Shown piece after piece: positions 8,535 through 63,789 of a stretch of DNA of 64,000 nucleotides (position 1 is the stretch's first letter; each line of letters begins with the position of its first letter). Where the stretch lies: NCBI GenBank assembly GCA_029858505.1, contig JAOUEW010000008.1:9939-73938 (forward strand), in the 5' to 3' direction. Source of the DNA: Deltaproteobacteria bacterium (GTDB taxonomy: Bacteria > SAR324 > JACQKK01). Made by a program: the position numbers and the translations under genes. The notes beneath the pieces are model-generated. The model saw only the letters and a list, made by a program, of their open reading frames with translations, ran no database searches and was not told the DNA's origin.

Positions 8535-8639
8535 GGTCACCAAAGGAAAGAGATACCTTGCCAGATCACAACATCGTGGATCGTTTGTACACGCTCTGCA
8601 TCGTTGATTGGATGGGGGGGCATCCCAACAGCACCCCTC

Positions 8640-8800
8640 CCTGGCGGCTTCGCCGCCTGTCCCTCCCCTTCGTGGAGGGACTTTACCCGAAACCATCGGC
8701 TATTCGATTCATCCGTGCGGATGGTGAAACCGGGCAAAAGATAATACGACATCCGCGGGCTTCGATTCATTTTCCTTCCACGAAGGGGAGGGGTGCCGTT
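8640..8800. repeat. Single copy of the ~125-bp structured repeat family, flanked by inverted hairpin arms.
   Basis: GAAACCATCGGCTATTCGATTCATCCGTGCGGATGG...GCGGGCTTCGATTC is homologous to the units at 31157, 33803 and 36305. The flanks GTCCCTCCCCTTCGTGGAGGGAC and CCACGAAGGGGAGGGG are reverse complements of each other. Confidence 0.6.
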
Positions 8801-8933
8801 GGGAAGCCCCCCCAAAGCCGAAGGAAATCACGAGGAACAAGTGATATCCTTCCCAGAGCCCCTAACCTATACCACAACACCAGAAGCGCAACATTGTAGC
8901 TGTGGATGATATCATATTTCGTGAGCAATCGGG

Positions 8934-11345: not shown

Positions 11346-12761
11346 ATGAAACAAGACGCGTATCTATTCTGGCTGAACCGGCTGGAGAACCATGCCCAAT
11401 ACCGTCAGGTTCCCCATGGGGCGGACCAGGGGCGGCTGGCCCCCCTGGCCGCCTTGCTCCAGGCCCTGGAAAACCCCCACCAAGCCTTGCGGGTGGTGCA
11501 CTTGGCGGGAACCAACGGCAAAACCACCACCGCCCACCTGATTGCCCGGCTCTTGGCCAGGGAAACCGGCGGAGAACGGGTGGGGCTATATACCTCCCCC
11601 CACTTGGTCGACATCCGGGAACGCATCCAAATTCAGGGTAGGATGATCTCTCGCCGGGACTTTGTGGCGGCTTCTCGGGCGGTGTGGGGGGCGGCGGAAG
11701 AACTGGGCCTGCTGGGGGGAGAATCTTCTTCCCCCCGGCTAAGTTGGTTTGACCTGGTGACCGCCATGGGGCTGTGGCACTTTCGGCGGCGGGGAGCCGC
11801 CTGGGCCGTGCTGGAAACCGGCCTGGGGGGGCTGGCCGATGCCACCAACCTGGCCCCCAAAACCCTGTGCGTCCTCACCCCCATGGGGCTGGATCATGCC
11901 GCCGTGCTGGGGAACACCCTAGGGGCTATTGCCTGGCAGAAGGCGGGCATATTGGCGCCGGGGGTGCCGGTGGTGCTGGGCCCCCAGCCCCCAGAAGCCC
12001 AGCAGGTGGTGCAAGACCGGGCCGCCGCCCTGGGTTGCCCCATCATCCCCTGGGACCGGGTGAGCCTAGAGAAAACCGTGCCCCAACCCGCAAACCCCCA
12101 GCCGGTCCATCGCCAAAGCCAGCGGCTGAACATCACGGCCCGCTGGCCGGGGGGGGCCACCGCCAGCCGTTGGATTGAATCCGAGGGCTGGAATGAACCC
12201 TTCCGCTTGGCGGCCGCCACGGCCCTGTCTGCCGCGGAAGAACTGTTGGCCCCCCCCCGCAAGCCCCAGTCCCGGCTGGCCGCCGTGCTGGGCGGAGCCC
12301 TGCCCGGCCGTCAGACTTTTTTACCCCATTTGCGCCTAGCCAACGGGCACACCCTGCCCTGGCTGATGGTGGACGGCGGCCATAACCCCCCGGCCTTGGA
12401 AGCCCTAGCCCGGCGGCTGGAACACCGCCGGGGCTACACCCTGGTGTGGGGCATGTTGACCGACAAGTTGATCCCCGAAACAGAGCCGCCCCTGGCCCGG
12501 CTGATGGCGGGGGCCCGCCGGGTGCTGGCGGTTCCCCCGCCGGGGCCCCGCTCCCCGGCCCCTGGGGTGCTGGGGGAGATCACCCGCCGGTTGGCCCCGG
12601 CCAACCAGCCCGACCCCCTACCCCAGGAATTCCCCCGGCTGGAGGAGGCCCTGGCCCAGGCCCTGGCCGCTGGAGACCCGGTGGTGGTGGCGGGGTCCCT
12701 GTGGCTGGCGGGGGAGGCGTGGGCTTGGTTACAGAGCAACCAACGGCAAAAACCCGGTTGA
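11346..12761 (+). CDS. folC: Bifunctional folylpolyglutamate synthase / dihydrofolate synthase.
   Basis: Mur-ligase P-loop VVHLAGTNGKTTTAHL and overall FolC architecture (471 aa). Confidence 0.8.
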   Translation: MKQDAYLFWLNRLENHAQYRQVPHGADQGRLAPLAALLQALENPHQALRVVHLAGTNGKTTTAHLIARLLARETGGERVGLYTSPHLVDIRERIQIQGRMISRRDFVAASRAVWGAAEELGLLGGESSSPRLSWFDLVTAMGLWHFRRRGAAWAVLETGLGGLADATNLAPKTLCVLTPMGLDHAAVLGNTLGAIAWQKAGILAPGVPVVLGPQPPEAQQVVQDRAAALGCPIIPWDRVSLEKTVPQPANPQPVHRQSQRLNITARWPGGATASRWIESEGWNEPFRLAAATALSAAEELLAPPRKPQSRLAAVLGGALPGRQTFLPHLRLANGHTLPWLMVDGGHNPPALEALARRLEHRRGYTLVWGMLTDKLIPETEPPLARLMAGARRVLAVPPPGPRSPAPGVLGEITRRLAPANQPDPLPQEFPRLEEALAQALAAGDPVVVAGSLWLAGEAWAWLQSNQRQKPG

Positions 12762-12781
12762 TGAAGAAATCTCAGGATATC

Positions 12782-12816
12782 GGGGGGAGACACGGGGGAG
12801 ACACGGGGGAGATCCG
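12782..12816. repeat. Short tandem repeat (GGGGGAGACAC)x~3 in the folC-pirin intergenic region.
   Basis: Direct reading: ggggggagacacgggggagacacgggggagatccg, followed by an AT-rich gaataag/gaatagg repeat stretch. Confidence 0.6.
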
Positions 12817-12936
12817 ATTGATCAACGTTGATATAAAGATAGGGTGGAATAAGAAGAATAAGAATCGGTGAGAATAGGAGAATAGGGTCGTCAACGTATA
12901 AATGATGTATCCTGGAAGGTATAGACAGAGACCTTT

Positions 12937-12977
12937 GCATAACCCGGGTTTTTGCCGTGAACGGGGGGCATGGGGAG
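12937..12977 (+). promoter_or_regulatory. Copy 1 of the conserved upstream motif TGCATAACCSGGGTTTTTGCCGTGAA, about 70 bp upstream of pirin.
   Basis: Near-identical to 19406-19446 (+) and to the reverse complement of 43740-43760. All three are co-oriented with the downstream gene. Confidence 0.5.
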
Positions 12978-13031
12978 CGAGGCCCCCCAATAAACTCAGC
13001 CCCCCTGCCCCATCATTTCCGGAGACCCCCC

Positions 13032-13910
13032 ATGACCACCATCCGCCCAGTCACCGCCGTGGTGACCGCCATCCAAACCATGGAGGGGGCCGGGTTCCCC
13101 GTGCGCAGGCCCTTTCCCACCCCCTCCATGATTCAGTTTGATCCCTTTCTGCTGCTGGACCACATGGGGCCAGTGACTTGGCCCCCCGGCCAAGCCCAGG
13201 GCGCCCCGGACCACCCCCACCGGGGGTTCGAAACGGTGACCTATATGTTGCAAGGCAGCATGGAGCACCGGGATTCCATGGGCAACGTGGCCCGCATGGG
13301 GCCGGGAGACGTGCAGTGGATGACCGCCGGGGCTGGCGTGGTCCACGCCGAAATGCCTCCGCCAGCCTTTTTGCAAGCGGGAGGGGTGATGGAGGGCTTT
13401 CAAATTTGGGTGAACTTGCCCGCCCGGGAAAAAATGAGGCCTCCCCGCTATCAGGGCATCGCCCGGGACCTGCTGCCCCAGGCAGAAAATCCACAGGGGG
13501 TATCGGTGCGGGTGATTGCCGGAGAAGCCTTTGGGGTGAAGGCCGCCATTCACACCCACACCCCCATTCAACTGGTGCATGTGACGGTGCCCCCCGGCGG
13601 AGAGGGCCGCATTGAAACCGCCAGCGGCCACAACGTCATGATCTATGGGTTTTCCGGCGGGGTGCTGGCGGGGGAGGAACGGGTTGCCGTGGGGGAAGGA
13701 CAGATGGCCGTGTTTGGGCCGGGCGATGCCATCACGTTTGCCCTGCCTGCCAGTGCCCCGGCTTCAACCCATTTTTTGCTGCTGGCGGGAGAACCCATTC
13801 GGGAACCCCTGGCCCGCTGGGGGCCCTTCGTGATGAACACCGAACAGGAAATCATCCAGGCCTTCGAAGACTTCCAAAGCGGCAGAATGGGCCAAATTCA
13901 GGCCGAATAG
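13032..13910 (+). CDS. Pirin family protein.
   Basis: HPHRGFETVTYMLQGSMEHRDSMGN...VQWMTAGAGVVHAE cupin/pirin motifs. Confidence 0.85.
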   Translation: MTTIRPVTAVVTAIQTMEGAGFPVRRPFPTPSMIQFDPFLLLDHMGPVTWPPGQAQGAPDHPHRGFETVTYMLQGSMEHRDSMGNVARMGPGDVQWMTAGAGVVHAEMPPPAFLQAGGVMEGFQIWVNLPAREKMRPPRYQGIARDLLPQAENPQGVSVRVIAGEAFGVKAAIHTHTPIQLVHVTVPPGGEGRIETASGHNVMIYGFSGGVLAGEERVAVGEGQMAVFGPGDAITFALPASAPASTHFLLLAGEPIREPLARWGPFVMNTEQEIIQAFEDFQSGRMGQIQAE

Positions 13911-17102: not shown

Positions 17103-18683
17103 ATGGTCCGACCAGGAGGTCTCATGGACATTGCTCAGAACACCACCCTGCCTGTTTCCAAGGGTGATTCCACCCGAACCGCCCGTTTGATCTCCCGTGT
17201 TCTTGCCCCCCTCGATCGCCTCTTTCAACGCTGTTACGACTCTCCCTACAATCCGCTGTATCTGTCTGGGGCCCTGACCCTGTTCTTTCTGCTGCTGGTG
17301 CTGGTCACCGGCGCCTACCTGCTGATTTTCTATCGGGCGGGTTCTCCCTACGAGTCCATGGCGGCCATCCAAGAGCAAGTCTGGGGCGGCCGCTGGATCC
17401 GCGCCCTGCACCGCTATGCGTCAGACGCCGCCGTGGTGACGGCGGTGCTGCACATGCTGCGCATGTTTGCCCAGGGGCGCAGCTGGGGGCCCCGGGCCCT
17501 GGGGTGGATCACCGGGGTGGGCATGCTGGCCCTGCTGTGGGGTGTGGGGTGGACCGGCTATGTGCTGGTGTGGGACCAACACGGGTTGATCCTGGCCAAC
17601 CGGGGGGCCCGCATGCTAGACGCTCTTCCCCTGTTCTCCGAGCCCATCTCCCGCATGTTTGCCACCGGCCAGGTGGTGTATCACTTTTTTTTCTTCAACC
17701 TGTTTTTGCACATGGCCATTCCGCTGGTGATGGGGGCCCTGCTGTGGATGCACGTGATGCGGCTGGCCCGGTCGGTTCTGTTTCCTTCTCGGGGGTTGAT
17801 GTGGGGGTCGGGGCTGCTGCTTACCGGATTGTCTGTGGTTTGGCCAGCCCCCTTGGAAGGCCCCGCCGATGCCTTGTCCTCTGGCGGGCGGGTGGCGGTG
17901 GATGGGTTCTATACGTTTTGGCTGGGGTGGAATCTTTCCGGCGGGGCCCTGTGGTTGTTTTGGCTGGCCCTGTTGGGGGGGTTGACCGCCGTTCCCTGGC
18001 TGTTCCGGCCGGGCCTTTTGGCCCGCCCCAGGCCCGCCGTGGTGGATGAAGCCCATTGCGAGGGCTGCACCCAGTGCTATCAAGACTGCCCCTACGAGGC
18101 CATTCAAATGGTCGCGGTGGAAGGCCGAGAAAAACCGGTGGCCCGGGTGGACCCCGCCGTGTGCGTGGGCTGCGGCATCTGTTCCGGGTCGTGCAAGCCC
18201 ATGGTGATTGGCCCCCCAGAGCGGCGGGGCGGCCACCAAATTCGCCAAGCCCGGGCCCTTACCCAGGCCCACCCCCAAACCGTGGTGTGCCTGGCCTGCG
18301 ACAAAACCCTGGGGCGAAACCCCACCCTGCCCGTTGGCGTAACGTTATGGACCATCTCTTGCGGTGGAGAGATTCACGCCGACACGGTGGACGCCCTGTT
18401 GCGGCATGGGGCGGCGGGGGTGATGGTGGTGTCGTGCCCGCCAGAAAACTGCCAAAGCCGAGAGGGTGCCCGCTGGCTGGCGGCCCGCTGGGCGGGAGAA
18501 CGAGACATGCCCCTGCGGGCGAGGGTGGACCGCCGCCGCACCGCCTGGGTGACCCTGGAACCGGGAGACACCAAAACGCTGGCCAGGCTGGCCGCTCAGT
18601 TTCTAGACCGCCTGAACGAACCCGGCCTGCTGCCGGTCCGTGAGGAATCGGGCATCACGCCCACAGGAGAAACCCTGACGTGA
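17103..18683 (+). CDS. Fusion protein: cytochrome b (two-haem four-helix core) + 2x[4Fe-4S] ferredoxin + MvhD/FlpD-like domain.
   Basis: Cytochrome b signature RALHRYASDAAVVTAVLHMLRMF...GYVLVWDQ plus a His pair in helix D (HMAIPLVMGALLWMH). Ferredoxin motifs CEGCTQCYQDCP and CVGCGICSGSCKP. C-terminal VVCLACD...ISCGGE...VVSCPPENCQ resembles the hydrogenase iron-sulfur (delta) subunit. Confidence 0.65.
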   Translation: MVRPGGLMDIAQNTTLPVSKGDSTRTARLISRVLAPLDRLFQRCYDSPYNPLYLSGALTLFFLLLVLVTGAYLLIFYRAGSPYESMAAIQEQVWGGRWIRALHRYASDAAVVTAVLHMLRMFAQGRSWGPRALGWITGVGMLALLWGVGWTGYVLVWDQHGLILANRGARMLDALPLFSEPISRMFATGQVVYHFFFFNLFLHMAIPLVMGALLWMHVMRLARSVLFPSRGLMWGSGLLLTGLSVVWPAPLEGPADALSSGGRVAVDGFYTFWLGWNLSGGALWLFWLALLGGLTAVPWLFRPGLLARPRPAVVDEAHCEGCTQCYQDCPYEAIQMVAVEGREKPVARVDPAVCVGCGICSGSCKPMVIGPPERRGGHQIRQARALTQAHPQTVVCLACDKTLGRNPTLPVGVTLWTISCGGEIHADTVDALLRHGAAGVMVVSCPPENCQSREGARWLAARWAGERDMPLRARVDRRRTAWVTLEPGDTKTLARLAAQFLDRLNEPGLLPVREESGITPTGETLT

Positions 18684-19264: not shown

Positions 19265-19405
19265 TTTGGATTGCCGCCTGAAAGGCGGCGGGGAGGGGTA
19301 TTTCAAAGAGAGATCATACGGCAGCATGAATGGAGCCTGAACAAACAAAACCATGGTTTCACCCATGATCTGGGACAACCCCCAGAAAGAAAATAGGAGA
19401 CATCT

Positions 19406-19479
19406 GCATAACCAGGGTTTTTGCCGTGAAAAGGGGGAATGGGAGATGGGAAAAAATAGGTTATGCAGAGGTCTCTATA
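19406..19479 (+). promoter_or_regulatory. Copy 2 of the conserved upstream motif, embedded in an inverted-repeat structure about 170 bp upstream of the oxidase operon.
   Basis: TGCATAACCAGGGTTTTTGCCGTGAAAAGGGGGAATGGGAG. Arms CTGCATAACC / GGTTATGCAG flank the core. The distal arm GGTTATGCAGAGGTCTCTATA is the reverse complement of TATAGA(CA)GAGACCTtTGCATAACC at copy 1. Confidence 0.5.
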
Positions 19480-19605
19480 TGAGAACGAGGAGAAAATAAA
19501 TTGAAACGGGTTGAACACCCACGGAACGAACCGGAACAGGGTTCCCCGGATCGTCCGCCATGAACTGGAACCCCGCCATCAGCCACGCTGAGAAAGGAAC
19601 GTGTT

Positions 19606-23217: not shown

Positions 23218-23403
23218 GGAATTCCAGCATCCCCCTCAACCGTTCCGTTGATTCCGCCGGACGGAAGCCATCCCGTCACTTATCGGCTTCAAACCATCCC
23301 CCCCTCCCTGATTGGGGAGGGGGCAGGGGGGAGAGGTGTTGATGGGGGGTGTTGTTGGGAGAGATGTGAAAAATAAAGGTTAAGCAAATGTCTCCGGGAA
23401 CGG

Positions 23404-33802: not shown

Positions 33803-34325
33803 CTCGAATCCACCGGCTATTTCATTCGGCCGTTCGGATGGGTCGGGTGAACGGAAACAAGCAACGCCCTAACGCCATTGAACTCCCCCTCTCTTCGGGA
33901 GAGGGGGGCGGGGGGTGAGGTCCAATGGCTCGAATCCACCGGCTATTCTATTCTCCTGTTCGGATGGGTCGGGCGAACGGAAACAAGCAACGCCCTAACG
34001 CCTTTGAACTCCCCCTCTCTTCGGGAGAGGGGGGCGGGGGGTGAGGTCCAATGGCTCGAATCCACCGGCTATTCTATTCTCCCGTTCGGATGGGTCGGGC
34101 GAACGGAAACAAGCAACGCCCTAACGCCTTTGAACTCCCCCTCTCTTCGGGAGAGGGGGGCGGGGGGTGAGGTCCAATGGCTCGAATCCACCGGCTATTC
34201 TATTCTCCCGTTCGGATGGGTTGGGCGAACGGAAACAAGCAACGCCCTAACGCCATTGAACTCCCCCTCTCTTCGGGAGAGGGGGGCGGGGGGTGAGGTC
34301 CAATGGCTCGAATCCACCGGCTTCG
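33803..34325. repeat. Tandem array of about 4.2 copies of a 126-bp unit of the structured repeat family.
   Basis: Unit starts at 33803, 33929, 34055, 34181 and 34307, exactly 126 bp apart and over 97% identical. Each unit carries the CCGTTCGGATGGGTCGGGCGAACGG hairpin and the CCCCCTCTCTTCGGGAGAGGGGG UUCG-loop hairpin. Confidence 0.85.
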
Positions 34326-36304: not shown

Positions 36305-36745
36305 CTCGAAGCCAGCGGTTATTCTGTTCATCCGTTAAAGCACCCCTCCCTGGCACCTTCGGTGCCTGTCCCTCCCCATCGTGGAGGGACAATACGGCTT
36401 AGGCCGAGGGGTGGAGATAGAATCCGTTTGGATGAGGAGACCGGAAGGAAGCAAGCGATTAACTTTTCGGCTTCGCTTTATTTCCCCTCCACGAAGGGGA
36501 GGGGATGTCCGCACAGCGGGCAGGGGAGGGGTGCTTTACGAGAGGGGCAGTGCTCGAAGCCAGCGGTTATTTTCTTCAACCGTTCAGTTGGTGAAAACTG
36601 AGCGGAAACAAGCAACGCCCAAACGCCATTGAGCTCCCCCTCTCTTCGGGAGAGGGGGCGGGGGGTGAGGTCCAAATACTCGAAGCCATCGGTTATTTTC
36701 TTCAACCGTTCGAATTGAGAAGACAGGAGGGCGGAAATACACCCC
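36305..36745. repeat. Cluster of three units of the structured repeat family (one expanded unit with nested inverted repeats, one full unit, one partial).
   Basis: Unit heads CTCGAAGCCAGCGGTTATT at 36305 and 36553, and CTCGAAGCCATCGGTTATT at 36678. The 36553-36677 unit is about 85% identical to the 33803 array unit. 36340-36534 contains nested palindromes GCACCCCTCCCTG...CAGGGGAGGGGTGC and GTCCCTCCCC...GGGGAGGGGATGTCC. Confidence 0.8.
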
Positions 36746-43639: not shown

Positions 43640-43739
43640 GGGAGCCTAACTCTGGCATAAAGGTGAACGAAGCTGGGGAATAAGAAATACCCCCTACTTT
43701 ACGGTCTGGGTGCCTATGGGGTCAATATGCGGGGTGAAG

Positions 43740-43760
43740 TTCACGGCAAAAACCCTGGTG
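43740..43760 (-). promoter_or_regulatory. Copy 3 of the conserved upstream motif, on the minus strand about 90 bp upstream of ppiD.
   Basis: Reverse complement reads ATCACCAGGGTTTTTGCCGTGAA, matching copies at 12941 and 19410. Confidence 0.5.
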
Positions 43761-43890
43761 ATGCGGCGGTTGGTGAGGCCGAAGTCTCGAAATAAACCCG
43801 GCCATGACAAGACCATAGGGGGATAACATCAGGATATCGGATAGATGGGTCTCAGGATGGCGCCCAGGGGGGGGATCCCAAGAATTTCCG

Positions 43891-63432: not shown

Positions 63433-63668
63433 GCAAAGTATTTCGATCTACTAGCGCTGTCGGTTTAATCTTTTTCAGCTTGATCTTTTCTCTCTGCTCT
63501 CTTTGCGCTCGGTTCCCGGTCTCTTCTCTTTTATTCTTTTTTCCTGCGGCTTCTTTCTGGTTCTTACTGCTGCTTATAAAATGTATCTCCCCCCTTTTTC
63601 TTGCTCTCGCTCTTATTCTGGCTTCGCCCCCCCTTTCACGACAACCCCTGGTCGCTCAGAGGTCTCTT

Positions 63669-63738
63669 CTTTCTGGCGGCCTGTCTAGCGGGCTGGGCCC
63701 GCCTTTCTTTCTGGCGGCCTGTCTAGCGGGCTGGGCCC
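63669..63738. repeat. 35-bp direct repeat x2, each carrying a GCGGGCtggGCCCGC hairpin, at the end of a ~300-bp polypyrimidine (CT-rich) tract.
   Basis: CTTTCTGGCGGCCTGTCTAGCGGGCTGGGCCCGCC occurs twice back-to-back. Positions 63430-63700 are about 80% C+T on the plus strand. Confidence 0.6.
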
Positions 63739-63789
63739 GCCCAAGAACGCAGCACTGGAATCTCGTGGGGGATGGAGAAAATCCGCGGC

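Follow-up and report, generated by a model that had tools for sequence, protein, structure and literature searches.

A palindrome upstream of a cox operon as a probable member of a decaying MITE-type repeat family in an uncultured deltaproteobacterial genome

A short motif recurs between unrelated genes in a 64,000-nucleotide stretch of DNA from an uncultured "Deltaproteobacteria" MAG (the window; positions given without a locus name are window positions). At one of its occurrences, copy 2, the motif lies inside a palindrome, with the arms CTGCATAACC (19404 to 19413) and GGTTATGCAG (19459 to 19468) flanking the core exactly where they were originally placed. From this arrangement, two readings had been proposed, i.e., a small inverted-repeat mobile element and a structured RNA with an optional closing stem. 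We asked which of these readings the palindrome fits and what the repeated motif represents.

The palindrome and its relatives in the window

The palindrome is real, and its complementarity extends well beyond the 10-nt arms of the original prediction to 17 nt on each side, with 16 of the 17 positions paired, one mismatch, and a 45-nt spacer (19390 to 19480 reads aaaatagGAGACATCTGCATAACCagggtttttgccgtgaaaagggggaatgggagatgggaaaaaataGGTTATGCAGAGGTCTCtata). Folding, which had been suggested as a check, gave -34.3 kcal/mol for the stretch from 19390 to 19485 as RNA, compared with -15.3 +/- 2.5 for shuffled sequences (z = -7.6; 0 of 200 shuffles as good), and z = -8.1 for the same stretch as DNA. 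The structure is one long imperfect hairpin, in which the 17 bp are accompanied by T5/A5 and GCC/GGG pairs. The distance from this highly stable 17-bp stem to the cox operon downstream is 130 nt.

The core CCNGGGTTTTTGCCGTGAA has three exact occurrences in the window (12943, 19412, and 43758 on the minus strand) against 0.21 expected, and a fourth copy without the final GAA was returned by a repeat finder (copy 4). The distal arm GGTTATGCAGAGGTCTCTATA (21 nt; 19459 to 19479) has a single other match in the window, the reverse complement at 12924 to 12944 with three mismatches, where none is expected by chance; allowing a 4-nt indel, the match is TATAGACAGAGACCTTTGCATAACC at 12920 to 12944. The claim that the distal arm reappears, reverse-complemented, directly ahead of copy 1 thus holds for the match itself, with the interval (12917 to 12943 as first given) shifted by 1 to 3 nt. 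Copy 1 had also been described as one arm plus the core, and this description was borne out: its right arm is missing, and its fold is no better than those of shuffled sequences (z = -0.8), in agreement with the presence of only one arm.

Six copies or fragments were found in the window in total (Table 1); copies 5 and 6 were detected with a profile derived from full-length copies (see below). Using the same profile, nhmmer aligned copy 2 in two parts (19396 to 19443, E = 1.8e-10; 19442 to 19482, E = 2.2e-6), leaving out profile positions of about 60 to 110.

Table 1. Copies of the repeat in the window and the parts of copy 2
Feature	Position	Strand	Description
Copy 1	12920..13012	+	Left two-thirds; nhmmer profile positions 5-97, E = 1.2e-20
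Copy 2	19394..19479	+	Short form: both terminal inverted repeats present, both internal hairpins gone; outer ATAG...TATA counted in
Copy 2, left terminal inverted repeat GAGACATCTGCATAACC	19397..19413	+	17 nt, 94% complementary to 19459-19475
Copy 2, left subterminal core AGGGTTTTTGCCGTGAA	19414..19430	+	Motif of the original prediction
Copy 2, right terminal inverted repeat GGTTATGCAGAGGTCTC	19459..19475	+	
Copy 3	43739..43838	-	Rearranged left end, upstream of PpiD-like gene (ATG 43638, minus strand)
Copy 4	12743..12781	-	Degenerate left end GATATCCTGAGATTTCTTCATCAACCGGGTTTTTGCCGT, head-to-head with copy 1; repeat finder
Copy 5	about 23287..23396	+	Right half only; profile positions 74-146, E = 1.4e-6; between convergent genes
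Copy 6	63612..63667	-	Degenerate left part GAGACCTCTGAGCGACCAGGGGTTGTCGTGAAAGGGGGGGCGAAGCC, core decayed; weak nhmmer hit 63628-63667, E = 0.25

Copy 1 comprises the left end TATAGACA, the arm (12928 to 12944), the core (12945 to 12961), and hairpin 1 (about 12972 to 12988), followed by what remains of the first hairpin 2 arm; the start codon of the pirin gene is at 13032. The core of copy 4 encodes the last five codons (RQKPG) and the TGA stop of a FolC-like gene (11346 to 12761), with which it overlaps by 19 nt (12743 to 12761); the C-terminal tail of FolC-like proteins is unrelated and variable among homologues. The AT-rich 140-nt spacer between copies 4 and 1 contains an 11-nt tandem repeat (GGGGGAGACAC, 2.7 times; 12783 to 12812) that includes GAGAC, the start of the element's arm. 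In copy 5, a G-rich, diverged spacer separates hairpin 2 (about 23298 to 23323) from the right arm GGTTAAGCAAATGTCTC (23378 to 23394), and the core is absent. Copy 3 has the terminus GATATCCTGA at 43838 to 43829, about 56 nt of other sequence, and then GCATCACCAGGGTTTTTGCCGTGAAC at 43764 to 43739. The 12-mer CCGATATCCTGA, common to copies 3 and 4, lies about 60 nt upstream of the core in copy 3, which is therefore a rearranged left end and not a bare 26-nt motif. Copy 6 is the least certain of the copies and was recognized by eye together with the alignment. A perfect 38-nt tandem duplication (TTCTTTCTGGCGGCCTGTCTAGCGGGCTGGGCCCGCCT, two copies; 63667 to 63741) abuts its left end, and the junction sequence of this duplication (CCAGAAAGAA) also precedes copy 2, at 19383 to 19392. 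No further copy was found in the 7.9-kb extension to the left of the window.

The full-length unit and its derivatives

A metagenome scan with CATMAMCNGGGTTTTTGCCGT returned 14 loci, seven of which are on four contigs of one metagenome (Ga0224495). The tetranucleotide correlations of the Ga0224495 loci with the window are r = 0.93 to 0.96, compared with 0.97 between the two halves of the window. On the basis of this signature, the seven extra copies most likely belong to the same genome as the window. The reading of the Ga0224495 copies as those of a second species, which would have meant remarkable conservation, was withdrawn because their signatures match that of the window genome. The copies outside the window (loci designated L) were found by searching with the core, and the invariance of their core is accordingly an ascertainment effect; among copies found independently, the core is decayed (copy 6), replaced (L039), or absent (copy 5).

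Full-length copies with both arms and two hairpins are present at L037 (132 nt) and L025 (129 nt). The unit is composed, in this order, of the left arm (GATA....)GAGACCTCTGCATAACC, the left subterminal segment NGGGTTTTTGCCGTGAAAAGGGGGAATGG containing the core NGGGTTTTTGCCGTGAA, GC hairpin 1 (GGGGGGCRAAGCCCCCC), AATAAAATCA, GC hairpin 2 (CCCCCTTCCC-CCA-GGGAAGGGGG), CAGGGGGATGGGAAAAAATA, and the right arm GGTTATGCAGAGGTCTC. As read in L037/L025, the left arm is GAGACCTYTGCATAACC, followed by CGGGTTTTTGCCGTGAAAAGGGGGAATGG, hairpin 1 as GGGGGGCAAAGCCCCCC, and CATAAAATCAT, and the sequence from hairpin 2 through the segment after it to the right arm is as given for the unit. The core motif is the left subterminal (left inner) part of this element of about 130 bp. 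Copy 2 does have both arms, as originally stated, but it is not a complete unit; it is an internal-deletion derivative of the longer element.

The arms are conserved well beyond copy 2, contrary to the outcome that had been named as refuting the original prediction: they recur in L028, L037, L025, L039, and the window at 23378 to 23394. The 17-nt arms GAGACCTCTGCATAACC / GGTTATGCAGAGGTCTC carry 1 to 3 mismatches in copy 2, L028, L037, L025, and L039, and where the arms differ, usually only one side has changed. In some copies, the arms reach about 25 nt (GATATTCTGAGACC...), and the outer ends are variable (GATAGAAN-GAGAC versus GATATYCT-GAGAC). As single-stranded DNA, full-length copies fold into a closing stem formed by the arms and extended by T5/A5, plus the two hairpins; the DNA-fold z values are -6.3 for L037, -4.8 for L039, and -5.2 for L028. 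The units measure 79 nt (copy 2), 129 to 132 nt (L025 and L037), and 142 nt (L039), and only spurious open reading frames run through them.

The search for further complete and partial copies, also suggested originally, yielded full-length, internally deleted, one-ended, and degenerate forms. L028 is a second short-form copy, with both arms and no hairpins, and is unlinked to copy 2 (copy 2 is upstream of cox, and L028 is upstream of purB). These two copies differ from all others that retain this arm in having A instead of C at position 6 of the arm (GAGACA), and their deletion junctions differ by one 7-nt ATGGGAG unit, a difference that one slippage step can explain. Since two unlinked copies share the loss of the hairpins and the diagnostic A, the deletion derivative with intact arms appears to have been copied itself, and this short subfamily is the best single argument for copying by a process that reads the ends. 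The one-armed copies, unlike the short subfamily, are each unique. Copy 1, L033, L031, and L026 keep the left arm and the core and then break off at different points, while in L024 the sequence jumps from hairpin 1 directly to the right tip GGTCTTATA; truncation points thus differ among L024, L026, L031, L033, and copy 1. A G·U-rich pairing of GAGACC with GGGUUUUU, considered for RNA folds of the one-armed copies, was rejected, since these folds do not beat shuffled sequences (z of about -0.7 to -1.1) and the pairing is not kept in copy 6 and L026.

Short direct duplications bounding copy 2, which the original prediction had suggested looking for, were not found (ATAG on the left, TATA on the right). 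With several definitions of the terminus, no consistent target-site duplication was detected across copy 2, L037, L025, L024, L028, and L039: L039 is flanked by TATT on both sides, no duplication is seen at L037, L025, and L024, and L028 gains a flanking AAG pair only when GATA/TATC are taken as its ends. The flanks are purine-rich or TA-rich.

A related organism and other repeats

A related organism from the same sample (COX2 70% identical, FolC-like protein about 40%, PurB 73%; tetranucleotide r = 0.79 to 0.88 to the window and 0.91 to 0.94 among its own loci) carries a diverged full-length element of 142 nt at L039:2676-2817, beside its cox operon and between a 189-aa gene and a convergent SCO1 gene. 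The arms, both hairpins, the right subterminal segment, and the order of the modules are the same, and the left subterminal segment is different. After the left arm, at L039:2693-2707, TGCCAAAAGCTCCCG resembles the reverse complement of the window core (CGGCAAAAACCCG; 19413 to 19426) and is followed by a small hairpin of its own (CGTTTT-GATA-AAAACG); the resemblance may be coincidental or may stem from a small internal inversion. The gene order in this organism is cytochrome b fusion, 189-aa gene, the gap, 54-aa ORF, COX2, and COX1, and the element occupies the same gap in both organisms (i.e., after the 189/194-aa gene and before cox). The shared position could result from common ancestry or from chance and carries little weight, as about 1 in 10 intergenic regions has a copy by a rough count. 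It could also reflect retention rather than mobility, which counts against a MITE-type reading. Beside FolC (L044) and PurB (L049) of the related organism, no element is present, and its intergenic DNA is too diverged to align at base resolution; no alignable empty site was found via the FolC and PurB orthologues.

The genes flanking this gap form an arrangement of their own. A 526-aa protein (17103 to 18683; L039:499-2079) combines an N-terminal cytochrome b with two 4Fe-4S motifs and an FlpD-like domain (methyl-viologen-reducing hydrogenase delta). It is followed by a conserved protein of 189 to 194 aa with no Pfam hit and then by the cox operon, whose first gene encodes a membrane peptide of 54 aa. 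The related organism keeps this arrangement and also has the convergent SCO1.

Farther afield, GAGAGAGTTGCATAACCCGGGTTTTTGCCGT at L027:572-606 (Ga0105109_1004615; 39% G+C content; an unrelated metagenome) matches the left arm plus the core (nhmmer E = 3.9e-5); it may represent either chance or a remote family member carried by another organism. A scan of GTDB (one genome per species) with the core gave 21 single matches in unrelated taxa, against about 17 expected by chance according to our own estimate. Three matches on viral contigs were discarded as chance, all being inside coding sequence. BLAST of the full-length element against plasmids gave no matches, and literature searches for the sequences returned nothing relevant.

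Two short-read (Logan) contigs, L023 and L042, and probably a third, L040 (E = 0.065), have their start within a copy of the element, which agrees with the expectation for a multicopy repeat that breaks short-read assembly. By exact protein matches, the window itself corresponds to an ENA contig (ERZ27296335) and to Logan contigs of SRR7132115, and its proteins are labeled "MAG: Deltaproteobacteria bacterium" at NCBI.

The genome also contains a second, unrelated inverted-repeat family of about 200 bp (8613 to 8814 and 36336 to 36538), shared with L037:5913-6185 from the same genome; such elements are thus harbored by this genome. The first of these copies has 29-nt arms (8613 to 8641 and 8786 to 8814; 93% complementary; TGGGGGGGCATCCCAACAGCACCCCTCCC) with a nested inverted repeat (8661 to 8680 and 8773 to 8792), and a perfect 15-nt inverted repeat is present at 36336/36524. 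Separately, a 126-bp unit with the hairpin CCCCCTCTCTTCGGGAGAGGGGG in each copy is tandemly repeated at 33803 to 34322 (4.1 copies; 97% identity), and dispersed single copies of part of this unit are located at 8665, 31136, 31288, 36532, and 36658. By coordinate arithmetic, the ENA contig (ERZ27296335) ends at the 126-bp array.

Interpretation and comparison with known repeat families

We consider it fairly probable that 19397 to 19475 is a member of a MITE-type family, i.e., non-autonomous, non-coding elements with terminal inverted repeats, that is now decaying. The features of such elements are present: small size (prokaryotic MITEs measure about 50 to 500 bp) without coding capacity, terminal inverted repeats, and several dispersed copies in one genome. 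We infer mobility from the copy pattern. The first of the two original readings, the small inverted-repeat mobile element, is supported by this dispersed non-coding family at unrelated extragenic sites. A transposase encoded elsewhere would have recognized the arms and spread the copies. In copy 2, an internal deletion between G-runs of the full-length unit would have removed both hairpins and spared both arms; copy 1 would have lost its right third, and the other copies in the window would be one-ended or degenerate relics. Most copies are presumably immobile by now and decaying. Their side effects would be incidental, such as a new stop codon for FolC and a 17-bp stem in transcripts that read from the cytochrome b cluster into cox. 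No transposase, integrase, or Y1 transposase was found among about 45 ORFs of the window, the ENA gene table, and 10 ORFs adjoining other copies, and the 64-kb window, the 7.9 kb to its left, and about 55 kb of related loci yielded neither an insertion sequence bounded by matching arms nor another trans-acting transposase.

The second original reading, a structured RNA, found no support: no significant Rfam match was obtained, changes in the arms are mostly one-sided, and the truncation points vary from copy to copy. A broader version, in which the arm plus GGGTTTTTGCCGTGAA would serve as a promoter, an operator, or a 5'-leader RNA for pirin, cox, and ppiD and the inverted arm of copy 2 would be an optional closing stem, is in our view improbable. 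The orientation of the copies speaks for it to some extent, as 8 of the 13 in the window genome point toward a downstream gene, and so do the identity of the core where the flanks differ (e.g., copy 3) and the presence of the element upstream of cox in both organisms; the remaining five copies (copies 4, 5, and 6, L026, and L031) lie between convergent genes or run into the 3' end of a gene, and the orientation relative to the upstream gene (9 of 12 by hand count) gives a one-sided binomial p of about 0.07 by our own estimate. All 13 copies are extragenic, except for the 19 nt of copy 4 in the 3' end of FolC, and their neighbors have no common theme: FolC/pirin, the cytochrome b fusion/cox, a Tle1-like lipase, a DnaJ/HTH protein, PpiD, an MGMT-like protein, DUF350, PilZ, peptidase M23, phosphopantetheinyl transferase (PPTase), and PurB. 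Some neighbors we take to be RecX-, HisF-, and ApaH-like from our own reading of the ORF translations. Scans around copies 1 and 2 revealed no sigma-70 promoter in or beside the copies and no terminator within the element. Possible sigma-54, sigma-32, ECF, and IHF sites, judged by eye against consensus sequences, were rejected because the spacings do not fit. In the window, nothing reached an Rfam gathering score; around copy 2, nothing was better than E = 0.9 even in a permissive search, and the best permissive match was RAGATH-28 on L037 (21.3 bits versus a gathering score of 45.3; E = 0.07). The core, moreover, decays in copy 6 and differs in L039, and its invariance outside the window is an artifact of the core-based search. 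Correia and similar MITEs are known to carry promoters and IHF sites (PMC10969869), so that a secondary regulatory role is conceivable. We also give little credence to a host-recruited, persistently inherited hairpin module in the manner of REPINs, in which the copy in the gap would act as an RNA-level insulator, a processing site, or a terminator between two respiratory operons and GGGTTTTTGCCGTGAA would be a protein-binding site.

A REPIN-like origin is unlikely, if somewhat less so. According to this explanation, the arms and spacer would form a single-stranded DNA hairpin copied by a single-copy RAYT (IS200/IS605-like), and the one-armed copies would be defunct "singlets." REP sequences are short GC-rich imperfect palindromes with a GTAG-type head, and the arm GAGACCTCTGCATAACC has no internal palindrome of more than 3 to 4 bp and no GTAG-like head. 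The short form does fold as a single long imperfect hairpin (as DNA, z = -8.1 for copy 2 and -5.2 for L028), but the spacer of the long copies makes two local hairpins instead of cross-pairing. REPINs make no target-site duplication, which suits the absence of a consistent one here, and one-armed copies are common. In L039, a change on both sides preserves one pair (C-G to T-A at the innermost arm position), against arm differences that are otherwise mostly one-sided mismatches, and no Y1 transposase was found in the window. The general shape, a long hairpin in which the inverted ends are conserved and the spacer between them is less so, and the extragenic location and frequent one-ended remnants agree with published descriptions of REPINs (PMC3116915); the differences are that the arms here are not short GC-rich palindromes, that the long form contains two internal hairpins that fold autonomously, that no RAYT was seen, and that few changes are compensatory. 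The palindrome was also compared with integron attC sites, i.e., imperfect palindromes of 57 to 141 bp with AAC...GTT core sites, an identification that is effectively refuted. The size of the elements (79 to 142 bp) is suitable, and the arms hold GCATAAC ... GTTATGC, each agreeing at 6 of 7 positions with RYYYAAC / GTTRRRY. In attC sites, R'' (RYYYAAC) and R' (GTTRRRY) are at the outer ends, and the sites form cassette arrays beside intI; here it is the inner ends that carry the AAC/GTT triplets, the copies lie 6 to 24 kb apart among housekeeping genes with no cassette array, the window yielded no integrase, and the internal sequence is conserved between copies.

The nearest known counterparts are prokaryotic MITEs, such as the Correia elements of Neisseria (CREE/NEMIS), and REPINs. 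The Correia elements share with the present family a size of about 100 to 200 bp, the lack of coding capacity, terminal inverted repeats of about 17 to 26 nt, a multicopy and extragenic distribution near genes, the occurrence of both full-length and internally deleted forms, and the formation of a long stem in transcripts. The Correia terminus reads (T)ATAG, and the outer end here is often (T)ATAG as well. However, there is no sequence similarity between the two, the TA duplication typical of Correia elements is not demonstrable here, no promoter or IHF site was detected, and the host is an uncultured "Deltaproteobacteria" MAG. The general features of prokaryotic MITEs, including Correia elements, have been described previously (PMC10969869, PMC3184786). 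ERIC, RUP, and BOX elements are similarly dispersed imperfect palindromes of about 100 to 130 bp in transcribed intergenic regions, with internally deleted or inserted variants (PMC3184786, PMC10969869), but they belong to other sequence families in other hosts, and the relation is one of kind and not of descent.

The MITE-type reading explains the repeated motif of the window, which should not be annotated as a regulatory site, a riboswitch, or a small-RNA gene. The element would be an ordinary MITE-type repeat, with nothing surprising for a specialist in bacterial repeats. It explains short-read assembly breaks in this organism, adds a MITE-type family to an uncultured and little-studied lineage with affinity to SAR324 / Lambdaproteobacteria, and hints at a second one.
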